Below, one piece after another: positions 4,114 to 15,823 of a stretch of DNA of 19,746 nucleotides. Numbering within the stretch: position 1 is the stretch's first letter; every line of letters begins with the position of its first letter. The DNA comes from a virus (taxonomy: Duplodnaviria; Heunggongvirae; Uroviricota; Caudoviricetes), in IMG/VR virus record IMGVR_UViG_2541047849_000002; one strand, 5' to 3'. The notes beneath the pieces are model-generated. The model was not told the DNA's origin. It searched no databases and saw only the letters and a program-made list of their open reading frames with translations. The position numbers and the translations under genes were made by a program.

Positions 4114-5640
4114 ATGAAAAAAGCCATAGCATATATGCGATTTTCATCACCAGGTCAGATGTCTGGCGACTCATTGAACCGACAGAGAAGACTTATTGCT
4201 GAATGGTTAAAGGTAAATAGTGATTATTATCTTGATACCATAACATATGAAGATTTAGGATTAAGTGCATTCAAAGGAAAGCATGCACAATCAGGAGCTT
4301 TTTCGGAATTTTTAGATGCTATAGAGCATGGTTATATATTGCCAGGAACTACATTGTTAGTTGAAAGTTTGGACAGACTTTCAAGAGAAAAAGTCGGTGA
4401 AGCGATTGAGCGTCTGAAATTGATTTTGAATCACGGTATTGATGTTATAACTCTTTGCGATAATACAGTCTATAATATTGACTCTTTGAATGATCCATAT
4501 TCATTAATAAAAGCCATACTTATAGCACAAAGGGCAAATGAAGAAAGCGAGATAAAGTCAAGTCGGGTTAAATTATCATGGAAGAAAAAACGGCAGGATG
4601 CACTGGAGTCAGGCACGATTATGACGGCGTCTTGTCCGAGATGGCTCTCATTGGATGACAAAAGAACAGCTTTTATTCCAGACCCCGACAGGGTGAAAAC
4701 GATTGAGCTAATTTTTAAACTCAGGATGGAAAGGCGATCATTGAATGCAATAGCCAAGTATTTAAATGATCATGCTGTAAAAAATTTCTCAGGCAAAGAA
4801 AGTGCATGGGGGCCTTCTGTAATTGAAAAATTATTAGCGAATAAAGCTCTGATAGGTATATGCGTACCTTCATATCGTGCAAGAGGTAAAGGAATAAGTG
4901 AAATCGCTGGCTATTATCCCAGAGTCATATCAGATGATTTGTTTTACGCTGTGCAGGAAATTCGGTTGGCACCTTTTGGTATTAGCAATAGTAGCAAAAA
5001 TCCTATGTTGATAAATCTACTTCGAACAGTTATGAAGTGCGAGGCTTGTGGTAATACCATGATTGTTCATGCGGTATCTGGAAGTTTGCATGGCTATTAT
5101 GTTTGTCCGATGAGAAGACTGCATCGATGTGACAGGCCATCAATAAAGAGAGATTTGGTTGATTATAATATCATTAATGAGTTGCTTTTTAATTGTAGTA
5201 AAATCCAACCAGTTGAAAACAAGAAAGATGCTAATGAAACTTTAGAGTTGAAAATTATTGAGCTCCAGATGAAAATTAATAATTTAATTGCTGCATTATC
5301 TGTTGCGCCTGAAGTTACCGCTATAGCAGAAAAAATCAGAGTATTAGATAAAGAATTACGAAGGGCTTCGGTATCATTAAAAACTTTGAAGAGTAAAGCG
5401 GTGAGTTCACTTGGTGATTTTCATGCTATTGACTTAACCAGTAAAAATGGGCGAGAGCTATGTCGTACACTTGCCTATAAAACATTCGAAAAAATCATAA
5501 TCAATACAGATAATAAAACCTGTGATATCTATTTTATGAATGGCATTGTTTTTAAACACTATCCTTTAATGAAAACAATATCCGCCCAGCAGGCGATAAG
5601 TACTCTCAAATATATGGTTGATGGTGAGGTTTATTTTTGA
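4114..5640 (+). CDS. ybcK: Large serine recombinase (YbcK type), 508 aa
   Basis: N-terminal resolvase-type catalytic domain (AIAYMRFSSPGQ ... LLVESLDRLSRE), a Cys-rich zinc-ribbon segment (CEACGNTMIVH...YYVCPMRRLHRCDRP) and a coiled-coil region. AGGTG Shine-Dalgarno. Visibly AT-rich coding sequence. Confidence 0.9.
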   Translation: MKKAIAYMRFSSPGQMSGDSLNRQRRLIAEWLKVNSDYYLDTITYEDLGLSAFKGKHAQSGAFSEFLDAIEHGYILPGTTLLVESLDRLSREKVGEAIERLKLILNHGIDVITLCDNTVYNIDSLNDPYSLIKAILIAQRANEESEIKSSRVKLSWKKKRQDALESGTIMTASCPRWLSLDDKRTAFIPDPDRVKTIELIFKLRMERRSLNAIAKYLNDHAVKNFSGKESAWGPSVIEKLLANKALIGICVPSYRARGKGISEIAGYYPRVISDDLFYAVQEIRLAPFGISNSSKNPMLINLLRTVMKCEACGNTMIVHAVSGSLHGYYVCPMRRLHRCDRPSIKRDLVDYNIINELLFNCSKIQPVENKKDANETLELKIIELQMKINNLIAALSVAPEVTAIAEKIRVLDKELRRASVSLKTLKSKAVSSLGDFHAIDLTSKNGRELCRTLAYKTFEKIIINTDNKTCDIYFMNGIVFKHYPLMKTISAQQAISTLKYMVDGEVYF

Positions 5641-5751
5641 GTAATAATCACTTTTCCAACCGTGCTATAGTAAGAAAGTTAGGTAAGTACAATAAAAGTA
5701 TCTATCCTGAACGAAGCGTCCTGAGCTATGGTTTTACTATAGGGACTGCCA

Positions 5752-6075
5752 ATGGATGCTGGCGTTCCCGTTCTAGCAGTTCAACAATTCCCAATCACAA
5801 AACAATTCACTGATAACGAACTTTGCACACTCGCCTGGTTATGGCGAGCAGGGAATGTGATGTTAATTGCCTACCAGAACGTTACTCATCTTCTTCAGGA
5901 TGCGGAGCATGGTGAGGCTGGTCACTTCACTTCCATCGAGCAAGAATATCCCCAGAGACTCAACAGAGCGCGAGCAATCCTCGCCCGAGAAACGGCACAT
6001 GTAAAACTTCAGCCGTGGCAGGATGATAAGTGGAGTCAAGTATTGCCGCATTTACCTCAGAATCTGTTTCAATAA
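5752..6075 (+). CDS. Hypothetical protein, 107 aa, no recognisable family
   Basis: ORF with ATG and a weak AGGGA Shine-Dalgarno. Base composition by eye is less AT-rich than the flanking ybcK and HNH genes. Could be a gene fragment. Confidence 0.3.
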   Translation: MDAGVPVLAVQQFPITKQFTDNELCTLAWLWRAGNVMLIAYQNVTHLLQDAEHGEAGHFTSIEQEYPQRLNRARAILARETAHVKLQPWQDDKWSQVLPHLPQNLFQ

Positions 6076-6093
6076 AGGCGCTAGTTAGTAAGG

Positions 6094-6119
6094 CTTCCGT
6101 CATTCTGCGATGACGGAAG
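6094..6119. other. Perfect 10-bp-stem hairpin (CTTCCGTCAT-tctgcg-ATGACGGAAG) with no U-tract
   Basis: Inverted repeat read directly, 19 nt downstream of the 107-aa ORF stop. May be a terminator, RNA stability element or recombination-site remnant. Confidence 0.3.
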
Positions 6120-6249
6120 TGCGGGCTGCGTACGGGAGAGCAATTGCATGAATAATATAAATATTCCGCTCACTCCATATAGCGATTTCTGATACAAACT
6201 TATCTATTGTGGTAAAATTATAGAAACAAACTTATAGCGTACTAACCAT

Positions 6250-7032
6250 ATGGACAATATTAATAAACACGGGCTCTCAAGAAGAATACCTGAGACAATA
6301 AAACGTCAGATAAGGCAAAGGTGCGGCTTTGGCTGTGTAATTTGTGGATTTGGATTTTATGATTATGAGCATTTTAAACCTGACTTCGTTGATGCCAAAA
6401 TACATGATCCGAATGGAATGACACTTCTTTGCTCCCAATGCAATCAAAAAAGAGCTCGTGGTAGACTTTCAGCACAGACAGTGGAAATAGCTGACAGAAA
6501 TCCCAAGTGCTTACAGGCTGGTTTTGCAAATGAAATGTTTGATTTTCATAATGAGCCTATAACAGTAAAATTTGCAGGAGTGACGTTTCATAACTGTCAA
6601 AATTTGATTGTAGTCAACGAACAACCCATTCTTTCTGTGAAACCTTCACCCATACCACATGGACCGATGCTTTTATCAGGAATTTTCTGTAATTCTATTG
6701 GTAAGGAGACTTTACTGATAGATGAAAATGAATGGAAAGCTAAATCAGACAATTGGGATGTGGAGTGTACCGGCCCGCGTATAACAATACGACGTGGGCC
6801 AGGAGAGTTTGCCCTCGTTCTAAAAATGGAACCTCCAACAGGATTGATTGTTGAGCGTCTTGATATGTTGTATGAAGGGGTCAGGATGAAAGGAGATAAA
6901 GATCTGCTGGAAGTTTCGATTAATGGAGGTCCCTTGCACAGATGGCAATCATGCTCAATGTCAAATTGCCATACAGGGCTTGCGATTCAGGGCGGTATTA
7001 GAGCTGCTAATGATCCTTTGTATTGCGCCTAA
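6250..7032 (+). CDS. HNH-nuclease-domain protein, 260 aa, with an uncharacterised ~185-aa C-terminal domain
   Basis: N-terminal CGFGCVICGF...YDYEHFKP...NGMTLLCSQCNQKRA fits the HNH motif (Cys pair, catalytic His, Asn, second Cys pair). The rest has no family I recognise. Possible extended -10 promoter (TGgTAAAAT) about 30 bp upstream. Confidence 0.6.
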   Translation: MDNINKHGLSRRIPETIKRQIRQRCGFGCVICGFGFYDYEHFKPDFVDAKIHDPNGMTLLCSQCNQKRARGRLSAQTVEIADRNPKCLQAGFANEMFDFHNEPITVKFAGVTFHNCQNLIVVNEQPILSVKPSPIPHGPMLLSGIFCNSIGKETLLIDENEWKAKSDNWDVECTGPRITIRRGPGEFALVLKMEPPTGLIVERLDMLYEGVRMKGDKDLLEVSINGGPLHRWQSCSMSNCHTGLAIQGGIRAANDPLYCA

Positions 7033-7074
7033 ATCCACTAAATTGATTTTCAACAATCAACTTGCCATAATTAA

Positions 7075-7103
7075 GTCACCGGAGTTTGAACTCCTCCGGT
7101 GAC
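7075..7103. terminator. Strong hairpin, putative terminator/insulator between the island and ninB
   Basis: GTCACCGGAG (7075-7084) pairs with CTCCGGTGAC (7094-7103), a perfect 10-bp stem, followed by TTCTG. Confidence 0.45.
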
Positions 7104-7224
7104 TTCTGCGCTAAACGGGGACGTTTATGCGCACATACAATCCAACCTCTCTTCTCCATTCACAGATGCAGAAATGCACCTGCGATATTTTGCATCCAGC
7201 GTTTGATCTCTGCGGAGGTGAAGC

Positions 7225-13194: not shown

Positions 13195-13396
13195 CCGACA
13201 GGTTACGGGGCGGCGACCTCGCGGGTTTTCTCTATTTATGAAAATTTTCCGGTTTAAGGCATTTCCGTTCTTCTTCGTCGTAACTTAATGTTTTTATTTA
13301 AAATACCCCCTGAAAAGAAAGGAAACGACAGGTGCTGAAAACGAGCTTTTGGGCCTCTGTCGTTTCCTTTCTCTGTTTTTGGCCGTGGAATGAACA
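13195..13396 (+). other. Lambda-type cos site: right-end sequence, cosN 12-nt cohesive end GGGCGGCGACCT at 13208-13219, and cosB up to the Nu1 start
   Basis: ...GATCCGACAGGTTACG|GGGCGGCGACCT|CGCGGGTTTTC.CTATTTATGAAAATTTTCCGGTTTAAGGC... agrees almost base for base with the joined ends of the lambda genome as I recall them. Confidence 0.8.
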
Positions 13397-15823
13397 ATGG
13401 AAGTCAACAAAAAGCAGCTGGCTGACATTTTCGGTGCGAGTATCCGTACCATTCAGAACTGGCAGGAACAGGGAATGCCCGTTCTGCGAGGCGGTGGCAA
13501 GGGTAATGAGGTGCTTTATGACTCTGCCGCCGTTATAAGATGGTATGCCGAAAGGGATGCTGAAATTGAGAACGAAAAGCTGCGCCGGGAAGTTGAAGAA
13601 CTGCGGCAGGCCAGCGAGACAGATCTCCAGCCAGGGACTATTGAGTACGAACGCCATCGACTTACGCGTGCGCAGGCCGACGCACAGGAGCTGAAAAATG
13701 CCAGAGACTCCGCTGAAGTGGTGGAAACCGCATTCTGTACTTTCGTGCTGTCGCGGATCGCAGGTGAAATTGCCAGTATTCTCGACGGGATCCCCCTGTC
13801 GGTGCAGCGGCGTTTTCCGGAACTGGAAAACCGACATGTTGATTTCCTGAAACGGGATATCATCAAAGCCATGAACAAAGCAGCCGCGCTGGATGAACTG
13901 ATACCGGGGTTGCTGAGTGAATATAACAGCGCACAGGCGGCAGCGTCCTCGCAGACTGCATCGGCAAACTCCGCGACAGCAGCCAAAAAATCAGAAACCA
14001 ACGCGAAAAACAGCGAGACAGCCGCAAAGACGAGCGAAACCAACGCAAAGTCCAGCCAGACGGCAGCGAAAACCAGCGAAACGAATGCCAAAGCCAGTGA
14101 AACTGCGGCGAAAAATAGCCAGAATGCAGCAGCCGAAAGCGAGAGCGCGGCAGCCGGTTCTGCGACTGCAGCAGCTGGATCAGCAACTGCTGCGGCTAAC
14201 AGCCAGAAAGCAGCGAAGACGAGCGAAACTAACGCAAAGTCCAGCCAGACGGCAGCGAAGACCAGCGAAACAAATGCCAAAGCCAGCGAAACTGCGGCGA
14301 AAAGCAGTCAGGATGCAGCAGCCGAAAGCGAGAGTGCTGCAGCTGGTTCTGCAAGTGCGGCGGCTGCTTCTGCCACTGCATCAGCAAACAGTCAAAAAGC
14401 TGCAAAAACCAGTGAAACCAATGCAAAGACAAGCGAGACTGCAGCGGCGAACTCGGCGCAAGCATCGGCAGCAAGCCAGACAGCAGCTAAAGCAAGTGAG
14501 GATGCAGCCAGAGAGTATGCAAGCCAGGCAGCAGAGCCGTATAAATATGTCTTACAGCCACTGCCTGATGTGTGGATACCGTTTAACGATTCACTGGATA
14601 TGCTTGCTGGCTTTTCGCCTGGTTATAAGCAAATAACCGTAGGTGATGATGTTATTAAAATGCCATCCGATAAGGTTGTTAGCTTCAAACGCGCATCAGG
14701 TGCAACATACATTAATAAATCAGGTGTATTAACCGTTGCTGAAGTTGACGAACCGCGATTTGAACGAGAAGGTTTGCTGATTGAAGGACAGAGAACAAAC
14801 TATTTCAGAAATTCAAATACACCAGAAGCATGGAATAACACGGGTAGTGTGTCTGTTGAGTCGTTCGACAGTGATAAGGGGTTTAACTATGGAAGGATAA
14901 CTGTTATCAATGAAAATCCGACAGCACAAGGATATCAGGCAATTGCTGTAAACACGAATGATGCTTACACCTGCCCGGCAGGTTCTTATACGACGATATC
15001 GTGTCTGACGAAAAGTGATAATTCCCGGTGTCGTGCAAGGTTCGGAAAAATGTCTGATAATGGTGCGTTTGTTTTTCATTCAGATGCAGTTCTGGATCCT
15101 GTTACGGGAAATGTTGTTCATGGAAATAATGTGACGGTGACGGCAGAAAGAGTCGGTGAATGGTGGTTGTTTACCGCCACTCTTTTTGCAGATGCGGAAA
15201 TGATAATCAGCTCAAGATTTGAAATCCTGGCGATGCCTGGAATCAGTATTATCCCCAATGGCTCTACGTTAGATATTGCGATGCCTCAGGCGGAGATTGG
15301 GTCGTACAGGACGTCATTTATCATTACTGAAGGGGCTCCTGGCACTCGCTCCAGCGACATGGTGACAATACCTGTAAGAAACAATATTCACCGATTACCA
15401 TTCAGTGCTCTTGTTGAAGTTAATAAAAACTGGGATATCCCTCCCAGCAAATCACCATTAATCTTTAATGTTAAAGATTATCAGGAAAATGGTCTGTTCA
15501 CGCATGGATTCCGTGGTAATAATTTCTCTGATGCCGGTTCTCCTTTTATTTCTATGGGAGGGTGTAATAAATATGTGGCAACAACCCAGAGGAAAATCAT
15601 TTCAGGCTTCCGTTGTGGCGCTGATGGAGATGTTCAGGCCGTATGTAATGGTGAATTATCTGTTGCGGCAAAAACAACATGGACTTCAATTGTTCCACGG
15701 GCAGTATTGCGAATTGGAGGGCAGGGCACTAATGGGGAGTATCATCTTTTTGGTCATATCCGTAATCTGCGTATCTGGCATAAAGAATTAACTGATGCGC
15801 AAATGGGGGAGAGTATTAAATGA
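13397..15823 (+). CDS. Chimeric ORF, 808 aa: terminase small subunit Nu1 (residues 1-176) fused in frame to the shaft and C-terminal receptor-binding part of a side tail fibre
   Basis: Residues 1-176 (MEVNKKQLADIFGASIRTIQNWQEQGMPVLRGG...PGLLSEY) match lambda Nu1, which continues IEQSG-stop. Here the frame continues into Ala/Ser/Thr-rich SETNAK repeats and a C-terminal jelly-roll-like domain (...GEYHLFGHIRNLRIWHKELTDAQM). Junction at about 13922-13927. Confidence 0.8.
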   Translation: MEVNKKQLADIFGASIRTIQNWQEQGMPVLRGGGKGNEVLYDSAAVIRWYAERDAEIENEKLRREVEELRQASETDLQPGTIEYERHRLTRAQADAQELKNARDSAEVVETAFCTFVLSRIAGEIASILDGIPLSVQRRFPELENRHVDFLKRDIIKAMNKAAALDELIPGLLSEYNSAQAAASSQTASANSATAAKKSETNAKNSETAAKTSETNAKSSQTAAKTSETNAKASETAAKNSQNAAAESESAAAGSATAAAGSATAAANSQKAAKTSETNAKSSQTAAKTSETNAKASETAAKSSQDAAAESESAAAGSASAAAASATASANSQKAAKTSETNAKTSETAAANSAQASAASQTAAKASEDAAREYASQAAEPYKYVLQPLPDVWIPFNDSLDMLAGFSPGYKQITVGDDVIKMPSDKVVSFKRASGATYINKSGVLTVAEVDEPRFEREGLLIEGQRTNYFRNSNTPEAWNNTGSVSVESFDSDKGFNYGRITVINENPTAQGYQAIAVNTNDAYTCPAGSYTTISCLTKSDNSRCRARFGKMSDNGAFVFHSDAVLDPVTGNVVHGNNVTVTAERVGEWWLFTATLFADAEMIISSRFEILAMPGISIIPNGSTLDIAMPQAEIGSYRTSFIITEGAPGTRSSDMVTIPVRNNIHRLPFSALVEVNKNWDIPPSKSPLIFNVKDYQENGLFTHGFRGNNFSDAGSPFISMGGCNKYVATTQRKIISGFRCGADGDVQAVCNGELSVAAKTTWTSIVPRAVLRIGGQGTNGEYHLFGHIRNLRIWHKELTDAQMGESIK
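14030..14407 (+). repeat. Tandem duplication of a 189-bp (63-codon) unit within the tail-fibre shaft, with partial related units on both sides (about 13975-14480)
   Basis: Unit 1 at 14030-14218 and unit 2 at 14219-14407 are near-identical (TSETNAKSSQTAAKTSETNAKASETAAK...ANSQKAAK). Confidence 0.85.

Follow-up and report, generated by a model that had tools for sequence, protein, structure and literature searches.

A probable 3' remnant of an antirepressor-like gene with a remodelled terminator in a mosaic cassette slot of a DLP12-like prophage

The 107-codon open reading frame (ORF) that follows ybcK in a DLP12-like prophage, together with the perfect hairpin behind it, is very probably the 3' remnant of an antirepressor-type gene with a remodelled, probably non-functional terminator, both lying in a mosaic cassette slot. 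This explanation is built on homology to full-length relatives, on the positions of the junctions, on two discrete states of the 3' flank and on relaxed constraint in the truncated gene. The DNA analysed is IMG/VR record IMGVR_UViG_2541047849_000002, and "the window" denotes the whole stretch of 19,746 nucleotides, which is a DLP12-like defective lambdoid prophage of Escherichia coli. A preliminary description of positions 5641-6249, made from the letters of the sequence, had singled out the ORF as compositionally distinct and without a recognisable family, and the hairpin as lacking a U-tract.

Results

The locus and its cassette slot

Complete E. coli genomes with a locus 100% identical to 5641-6249 number at least 17, and the identical locus is carried by, for example, strains CFSAN029787, D2 and AW1.7; 839 of 5,426 complete E. 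coli genomes gave some match to this fragment region. At the identical loci the RefSeq gene order is replication protein, replication protein P, ren, emrE, ylcJ and ybcK, followed by a "P22AR C-terminal domain-containing protein" (WP_000338665.1) and a hypothetical protein, and then by ybcN, ninE, ybcO, rusA, ylcG, quuD, a porin and lysis genes. An IS2 element is also present near ren in a RefSeq-annotated strain with the identical locus. The gene to the left of the ORF, ybcK (4114-5640, + strand), encodes a large serine recombinase of 508 aa (Pfam Resolvase, Recombinase and Zn_ribbon_recom; RefSeq ybcK) and is 97% identical to its counterpart in K-12 DLP12 up to window position 5649. It belongs to an AT-rich emrE-ylcJ-ybcK module, the right side of which adjoins the gene remnant.

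In K-12 DLP12 the genes run intD ... emrE-ylcJ-ybcK-ybcL-ybcM-ylcH-ybcN-ninE-ybcO-rusA-ylcG-quuD ..., and the backbone is 97% identical to the window up to 5649 and again from 7043 on. Between these points the two prophages differ, ybcL-ybcM filling the slot in K-12 whereas the window has the remnant of a gene annotated rha and a 260-aa HNH-like gene. Since identity is confined to the sequences outside ~5650-7042, this interval, reaching from ybcK to the ninB/ybcN linker, is a variable cassette slot, in which different cassettes appear, from the alignments, to have been swapped. Directly after ybcK lies a spacer of 105 nt (5641-5745, + strand). In all copies with the remnant it comes next after ybcK; it shows no homology to full-length rha loci and gave no blastn-short match in loci without ybcK; spacer and remnant are both missing from K-12 DLP12 (beyond 5649).

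When the window was compared with loci L002-L084 and L167, the rha remnant was found to end on the right at five or more different points (5925, 6055, 6063, 6068 and 6126), each joined to another cassette, which marks the rha 3' end as a hot spot for illegitimate cassette exchange. The slot is occupied elsewhere by ybcL-ybcM (K-12, remnant absent), by an alpha/beta hydrolase gene (4C10) and by small ORFs (Turner). Homology among all relatives starts again in a conserved linker upstream of ninB/ybcN (7043-7204, + strand). Two hairpins lie in this linker, one a perfect stem of 12 bp at 7073-7105 (AAGTCACCGGAG...CTCCGGTGACTT) and the other imperfect (GCGCTAAACG...CGTTTATGCGC). In phages with full-length rha the linker occurs in two copies, upstream of rha and upstream of ninB. 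It looks like a recombination linker bordering exchangeable cassettes.

Other features were noted along the window. In an 808-aa ORF (13397-15823, + strand), residues 1-164 are the terminase small subunit Nu1 (Pfam E 4e-100), and a side-tail-fibre-like protein is fused to them in frame, which implies the loss by deletion of the whole virion-structural region. The side-tail-fibre-like part carries SETNAK-type repeats, and these account for an AT skew of up to 0.68 at 13800-14550. Shortly before the Nu1 start there is an inverted repeat of 26 nt (13316-13372; 85% complementary, 5-nt spacer), the position of which suggests a putative cos or terminase-binding region. Four TTACCTGAATCAGGTAA-like palindromic repeats at 1883-1972, inside the replication protein O gene (1559-2461), are presumably lambdoid ori iterons.

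Base composition

The ORF had been described as less AT-rich than both neighbours, and the measured values bear this out: its G+C content is 0.475 (47.5%), against 0.360 (36.0%) for ybcK on the left and 0.407 (40.7%) for the 260-aa ORF (6250-7032) on the right. The rha-homologous stretch 5746-6126 has a G+C content of 0.491, the sequence between ybcK and the ORF (5641-5751) 0.378, and that between the homologous stretch and the 260-aa ORF (6127-6249) 0.333; the composition profile along the window agrees with these per-segment values. The suggestion of a separate origin also holds, in that the ORF lies between AT-rich cassettes of other origin, emrE-ybcK and the 260-aa HNH-like gene. Its higher G+C content is ordinary lambdoid composition between two AT-rich cassettes.

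Identity of the 107-aa ORF

The ORF runs from an ATG at 5752 to a TAA at 6073-6075 and encodes 107 aa, as first described. The statement that it has no recognisable family is contradicted by a match to Pfam PF10548, P22_AR_C, the C-terminal domain of the P22 antirepressor (51.1 bits, E 1.5e-13; gathering cut-off 22.4 bits), in which ORF residues 15-85 cover positions 3-73 of the 73-position profile. Matches were also obtained to PHROG 7640, 245 and 377, among them PHROGs named "anti-repressor Ant", which the ORF matches at their C-termini. PHROG 7640 consists of just the 107-aa form, and the ORF spans its full 107-position profile. The protein is already present in RefSeq/PGAP as WP_000338665.1, called as a CDS and not as a pseudogene. 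WP_000338665.1 and PHROG 7640 are thus the same entity as the ORF, with identical DNA in the 17 or more complete E. coli genomes mentioned above, and its origin by truncation goes unmentioned in the databases.

That origin was evident from phages without ybcK. In PhiR5_1 and in many IMG/VR contigs the homologous sequence forms the 3' portion of a "Rha protein" gene of 202-249 codons, and the full-length PhiR5_1 protein has Bro-N and P22_AR_C domains and matches anti-repressor PHROGs. Homology to the full-length genes begins at window positions 5746-5765 at the DNA level, and when the 249-aa PhiR5_1 protein was searched against the window by tblastn, residues 152-249 alone aligned. The Bro-N half had no match in the ORF (Pfam) and none elsewhere in the window (tblastn). 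Pfam, PHROG, tblastn and alignments concur in marking 5746-6075 (+ strand) as the 3' remnant of a Bro-N + P22_AR_C antirepressor-like gene, and they indicate that the ORF is the 3' ~40% of such a gene, 202-249 aa long in relatives and annotated "Rha". Of the two origins considered at the outset, a fragment of a larger gene is therefore also upheld: by HMM and tblastn searches the ORF corresponds to the C-terminal, P22_AR_C-bearing portion of a larger protein that is already known, one of the two outcomes named beforehand as speaking against the finding. The names Rha and Ant of the full-length relatives come from annotation alone, and antirepressor activity is putative.

The closest comparison is with XSB41294.1 (249 aa) of Escherichia phage PhiR5_1, the residues 152-249 of which share 80% amino-acid identity with the ORF. 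The P22_AR_C domain is common to both, and both genes occupy the same place, between ren and ninB. Unlike XSB41294.1, the ORF is without the Bro-N half, has a new start codon and carries neutral-like substitutions. The ATG in the window lies out of the ancestral frame, and in the alignment with full-length genes a 1-nt deletion at about 5763/5764 restores that frame; the start codon is thus a by-product of the junction.

Further searches were negative. The overlapping ORF 5637-5813 (58 aa) had no family match, PADLOC and NCBIfam scans of the 107-aa, 260-aa and ybcK proteins gave no match, and neither did a PDB sequence search with a full-length relative. A protein-based scan of one genome per species found only two relatives, in Escherichia sp. 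E1V33 and Lonsdalea quercina.

Selective constraint on the truncated gene

Pairwise dN/dS was 0.07-0.19 among full-length copies, 0.19-0.33 between the window and full-length copies, and about 1.1-1.45, on small counts, among closely related truncated copies. Derived changes in the truncated copies, counted as distinct changes at sites invariant in all full-length copies, comprised 19 nonsynonymous and 7 synonymous ones; the nonsynonymous share of 73% compares with 78.6% expected under neutrality (p = 0.48, small counts). Polymorphism among the full-length copies (24 nonsynonymous, 39 synonymous) differs from this pattern (Fisher p = 0.005). The truncated copies have changed at residues that are invariant in the full-length ones, such as D35N, C41Y, P46H and R58H. 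One truncated lineage (L050-L053) has a premature stop (99 aa), and in 4C10-type phages the remnant is deleted beyond 5925. These patterns of substitution point to relaxed constraint on the truncated gene, with no constraint detectable at the protein level, and the ORF is most likely a non-functional relic, a probable pseudogene.

The hairpin as it stands

The hairpin CTTCCGTCAT-tctgcg-ATGACGGAAG occupies 6094-6119 (+ strand). Its arms (6094-6103 and 6110-6119) are 100% complementary over 10 bp, five of the pairs being G-C, and enclose a 6-nt loop, so that the stem is as perfect as had been described. It starts at the 19th nucleotide after the ORF stop, with 18 nt between stop codon and stem. 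With flanking G-U pairs the helix comprises 12 pairs over 6093-6120 (-16.7 kcal/mol), and the region 6076-6135 folds at -26.6 kcal/mol (z = -2.3). Perfect stems of 10 bp or more that enclose a loop of 3-10 nt occur three times in the window, and among 200 dinucleotide shuffles of the window the mean was 0.185 and none reached three.

A stable, G+C-containing stem with a short loop just 3' of a gene is what an intrinsic terminator has, and the hairpin has it too. A U-tract (at least 5 T in 8 nt) right after the stem is absent: no U-run occurs on either strand, the downstream sequence being TGCGGGCTGCGTACGGG on the + strand and CCTTACTAACTAGCG on the - strand. For want of this defining U-tract the hairpin does not qualify as an intrinsic terminator, and the terminator scan made no call, which agrees with the original view that it is not a canonical one.

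Rfam 15 covariance models, applied at gathering score to the whole window, gave no match. The hairpin is not a dispersed repeat of the REP/BIME type or another multicopy palindrome, since it occurs at a median of one place per genome (maximum 2) and always in this prophage context. An exact-pattern scan of one genome per species for the hairpin in either form, that of the window or that of its relatives (see below), returned 0 matches. The form seen in the window exists only in near-identical copies (at least 99%) and is absent from more distant relatives; this lack of conservation beyond near-identical copies is the other outcome named beforehand as speaking against the finding, and the two together remove most of its interest.

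Two roles suggested by its neighbours were considered and rejected. A recombination site of ybcK does not fit, as homologous sequence occurs in phages without ybcK. Membership of the 260-aa gene cassette does not fit either, because in other phages unrelated genes and ordinary terminators precede the homologues of that gene; the hairpin is thus not a piece of the cassette.

Descent from the rha terminator

At the position homologous to the hairpin, relatives have a canonical intrinsic terminator, TGCCAGCA...TGCTGGCA followed by T6-8. It reads ...TGCCAGCATTCTG-CGATGA-CGGAAGTGCTGGCA, again followed by T6-8, with a stem of 8-13 bp and a folding energy of -20.7 kcal/mol. After the stop codon, full-length genes and some truncated, ybcK-linked copies (L046-L053) read ...AGAAATAC TGCCAGCATTCTG CGATGA CGG A AGTGCTGGCA TTTTTTTT. 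The full-length Lonsdalea homologue, which is 53% identical, also ends in a canonical terminator. The stretch 6076-6126 of the window (+ strand) is homologous to this terminator region and differs from it at 9 of 51 positions: the window aligns with it base for base up to 6126 and is unrelated beyond. Blastn homology to full-length and class-D loci likewise stops at 6126, exactly where the T-tract should start.

The left arm of the hairpin is the old left arm with three substitutions relative to the terminator form (6096 G>T, 6099 A>G and 6100 G>T), and its right arm is the old terminator loop. At each of the three positions a base that was mismatched to the old loop ATGACGGAAG now forms a Watson-Crick pair with it, so that pairing between arm and loop rises from 7/10 to 10/10 and the stem forms in a new register. 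In the old right arm a single base has changed (TGCTGGC to TGCGGGC), and its pairing with the left arm is lost. The window hairpin thus shares with the rha terminator its position, 42 of 51 bases and a G+C-containing stem directly 3' of the stop codon, and differs from it in having no U-tract, a shifted register made of old left arm and old loop, and an altered right arm.

Only these two states were encountered. The terminator type and the window type were found in 37 and 18 IMG/VR contigs, in 11 and 5 metagenome contigs, and in 177 and 81 complete E. coli genomes (~5,400 scanned), respectively, and no intermediate state of the arm was seen in the IMG/VR or metagenome scans. Full-length and truncated genes from several mosaic backgrounds have the terminator type; the window type is limited to one shallow lineage and is always joined to the 260-aa gene cassette. 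From this base-for-base correspondence we infer that the Rho-independent terminator of the rha gene survives, remodelled, in the hairpin at 6094-6119, the terminator form being probably ancestral by parsimony, in a region that is highly mosaic. With a divergence of ~18-20% from all other flanks, the window-type 3' flank may come from an unsampled rha allele with its own downstream context.

Origin of the perfect stem

Three random substitutions in a 10-nt arm would hit all three mismatches with the complementary bases with a probability of 3e-4. When all eight left-side differences are considered, the minimum free energy moves from -12.8 to -26.6 kcal/mol, a gain matched by 0.1% of random sets. 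Both tests are post hoc, because the hairpin was picked for its perfection. The five changes outside the stem, tried on their own as compensatory changes for an extended helix, were unsupported (p = 0.11).

Quasipalindrome template-switching is an established E. coli mechanism by which imperfect inverted repeats become perfect (PMC7202029). The window resembles the mutations recovered with the reporters of the Lovett laboratory (PMC7202029) in that the changes are clustered in one arm, within a 5-nt tract, and each is the exact complement of the other arm, taking the pairing from 7/10 to 10/10; this is consistent with the mechanism and not proof of it. It differs from the reporters in being a retrospective reading of natural variants. 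The three arm changes would have arisen together by template-switching, or else through selection for a stem-loop once the U-tract had gone.

The neighbouring 260-aa HNH-like cassette

The U-tract of the terminator is replaced by an AT-rich cassette of 916 bp (6127-7042, + strand), the boundaries of which were set by comparison with other loci. It carries a promoter-like site of the extended -10 kind at 6189-6218 (+ strand; CTGATA, 18-nt spacer, TGgTAAAAT; promoter scan) and the 260-aa ORF (6250-7032, + strand), which PHROG 6544, a structure model and a PDB fold search describe as an N-terminal HNH-like fold followed by a C-terminal all-beta domain. PHROG 6544 is of unknown function, with a weak HNH match, and no family was found for the protein in Pfam, NCBIfam or PADLOC. 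Its 307 homologues (50-79% identity) occur in Enterobacteriaceae, Burkholderia, Comamonas, Pseudomonas and Vibrio. In the AlphaFold model (pLDDT 90.2) the N-terminal ~80 aa resemble HNH nucleases, with EcoKMcrA (6ghc_B) at probability 0.96 and also Cap5 and ScoMcrA, and the all-beta C-terminal domain (about residues 92-246) had no PDB match in the fold search. The protein may be a phage-borne nuclease with a role in exclusion or defence.

Discussion

The following course of events would account for the locus. A Bro-N + P22_AR_C gene would have lost its Bro-N half at a junction with the emrE-ybcK module, and the reading frame would have stayed open only because the junction ATG and the 1-nt deletion happen, by chance, to restore it. 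An illegitimate join at 6126/6127 would then have brought in the 260-aa gene cassette, removing the U-tract and sparing the right arm but for one substitution; the left arm would have gained perfect complementarity with the former loop through three substitutions. The present hairpin presumably no longer terminates efficiently and is probably non-functional; at most it might serve as a pause site or as a stem protecting the 3' ends of ybcK read-through transcripts, upstream of the cassette promoter.

It is improbable that the ORF encodes a functional stand-alone P22_AR_C protein, neo-functionalised from an antirepressor into a small regulator or decoy and co-transcribed with ybcK. The frame is intact (105-109 aa) in most ybcK-linked copies, across four downstream cassettes and in viable phages such as Turner, so some residual function could persist, and a weak AGGGA Shine-Dalgarno-like motif lies 6 nt upstream of the ATG; the 107-aa PHROG and the CDS call by PGAP are of the same tenor. 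Against this stand derived substitutions that fit neutrality, unlike the full-length pattern, and that strike invariant residues, as well as the premature stop in one lineage, the further deletion in 4C10-type phages, the complete loss from K-12 DLP12, a start codon in a shifted frame that is rescued by a deletion, and the lack of any promoter-like site in 5641-5752 (promoter scan). As regards the 3' flank, the polarity might be reversed, the window hairpin being ancestral and the terminator of the relatives derived from it by changes in the left arm and the gain of a right arm and T-tract. Both forms are internally perfect, so that the direction cannot be read from the two sequences by themselves, and the window-type flank is diverged in general (9 of 51 positions). 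The reversal is nevertheless highly improbable given the spread of the terminator form over full-length and truncated genes in several backgrounds against the single cassette of the hairpin form, the canonical terminator of the distant full-length homologue, and the homology break at the very point where a T-tract is expected to start. A chance inverted repeat with neither history nor function can hardly be entertained: a stem of only 10 bp is short, and ~0.19 such stems are expected per window, but its bases align one-to-one with the terminator of the relatives, and the three arm differences are exactly those that switch the pairing partner.

Selection may instead have kept the perfect hairpin as a functional RNA or DNA element, be it a 3'-end protecting stem-loop, a Rho-assisted or leaky terminator shielding the cassette promoter from read-through that arrives from upstream, or a palindromic protein-binding site. 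That all three arm substitutions make pairs, that perfect hairpins are enriched in the window over shuffles, and that the flanks extend the helix to -26.6 kcal/mol (z = -2.3) would agree with such a role, as would its place between two transcription units, where an insulator would be, and the terminator that always precedes homologues of the cassette gene elsewhere. We consider it somewhat unlikely, as the hairpin has no U-tract on either strand, no Rfam match and a single copy per genome, its stem is confined to one shallow lineage (at least 99% identity) and so offers no covariation evidence, the changes in the outer helix are not significant, and a one-step template-switch mutation accounts for the perfection without function. 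A more specific version, in which the U-tract was lost to the cassette, the left arm was converted in one templated event or by selection, and the new stem-loop was kept because it was still useful, is unlikely. If true, it would be a natural case of a terminator salvaged by a shift in pairing register, and the stem-loop might insulate the promoter of the HNH-like cassette as a factor-assisted terminator without a U-tract, or shield the 3' ends of transcripts that read through from ybcK.

On the preferred reading, that of a gene remnant with a remodelled terminator, the significance of the finding is mainly one of annotation, as the domain remnant was already known and annotated: the "P22AR C-terminal domain-containing protein" beside ybcK in DLP12-like prophages and in some viable lambdoid phages would be a truncation product and probable pseudogene. 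The three changes that made the hairpin perfect offer a neat candidate from nature for quasipalindrome template-switch mutagenesis. A more promising object than the remnant itself is the 260-aa protein, with its HNH fold and unmatched all-beta domain, which is widespread in Proteobacteria and has no assigned family. The locus as a whole shows how cassette exchange in the ren-ninB slot severs genes and terminators at illegitimate junctions.
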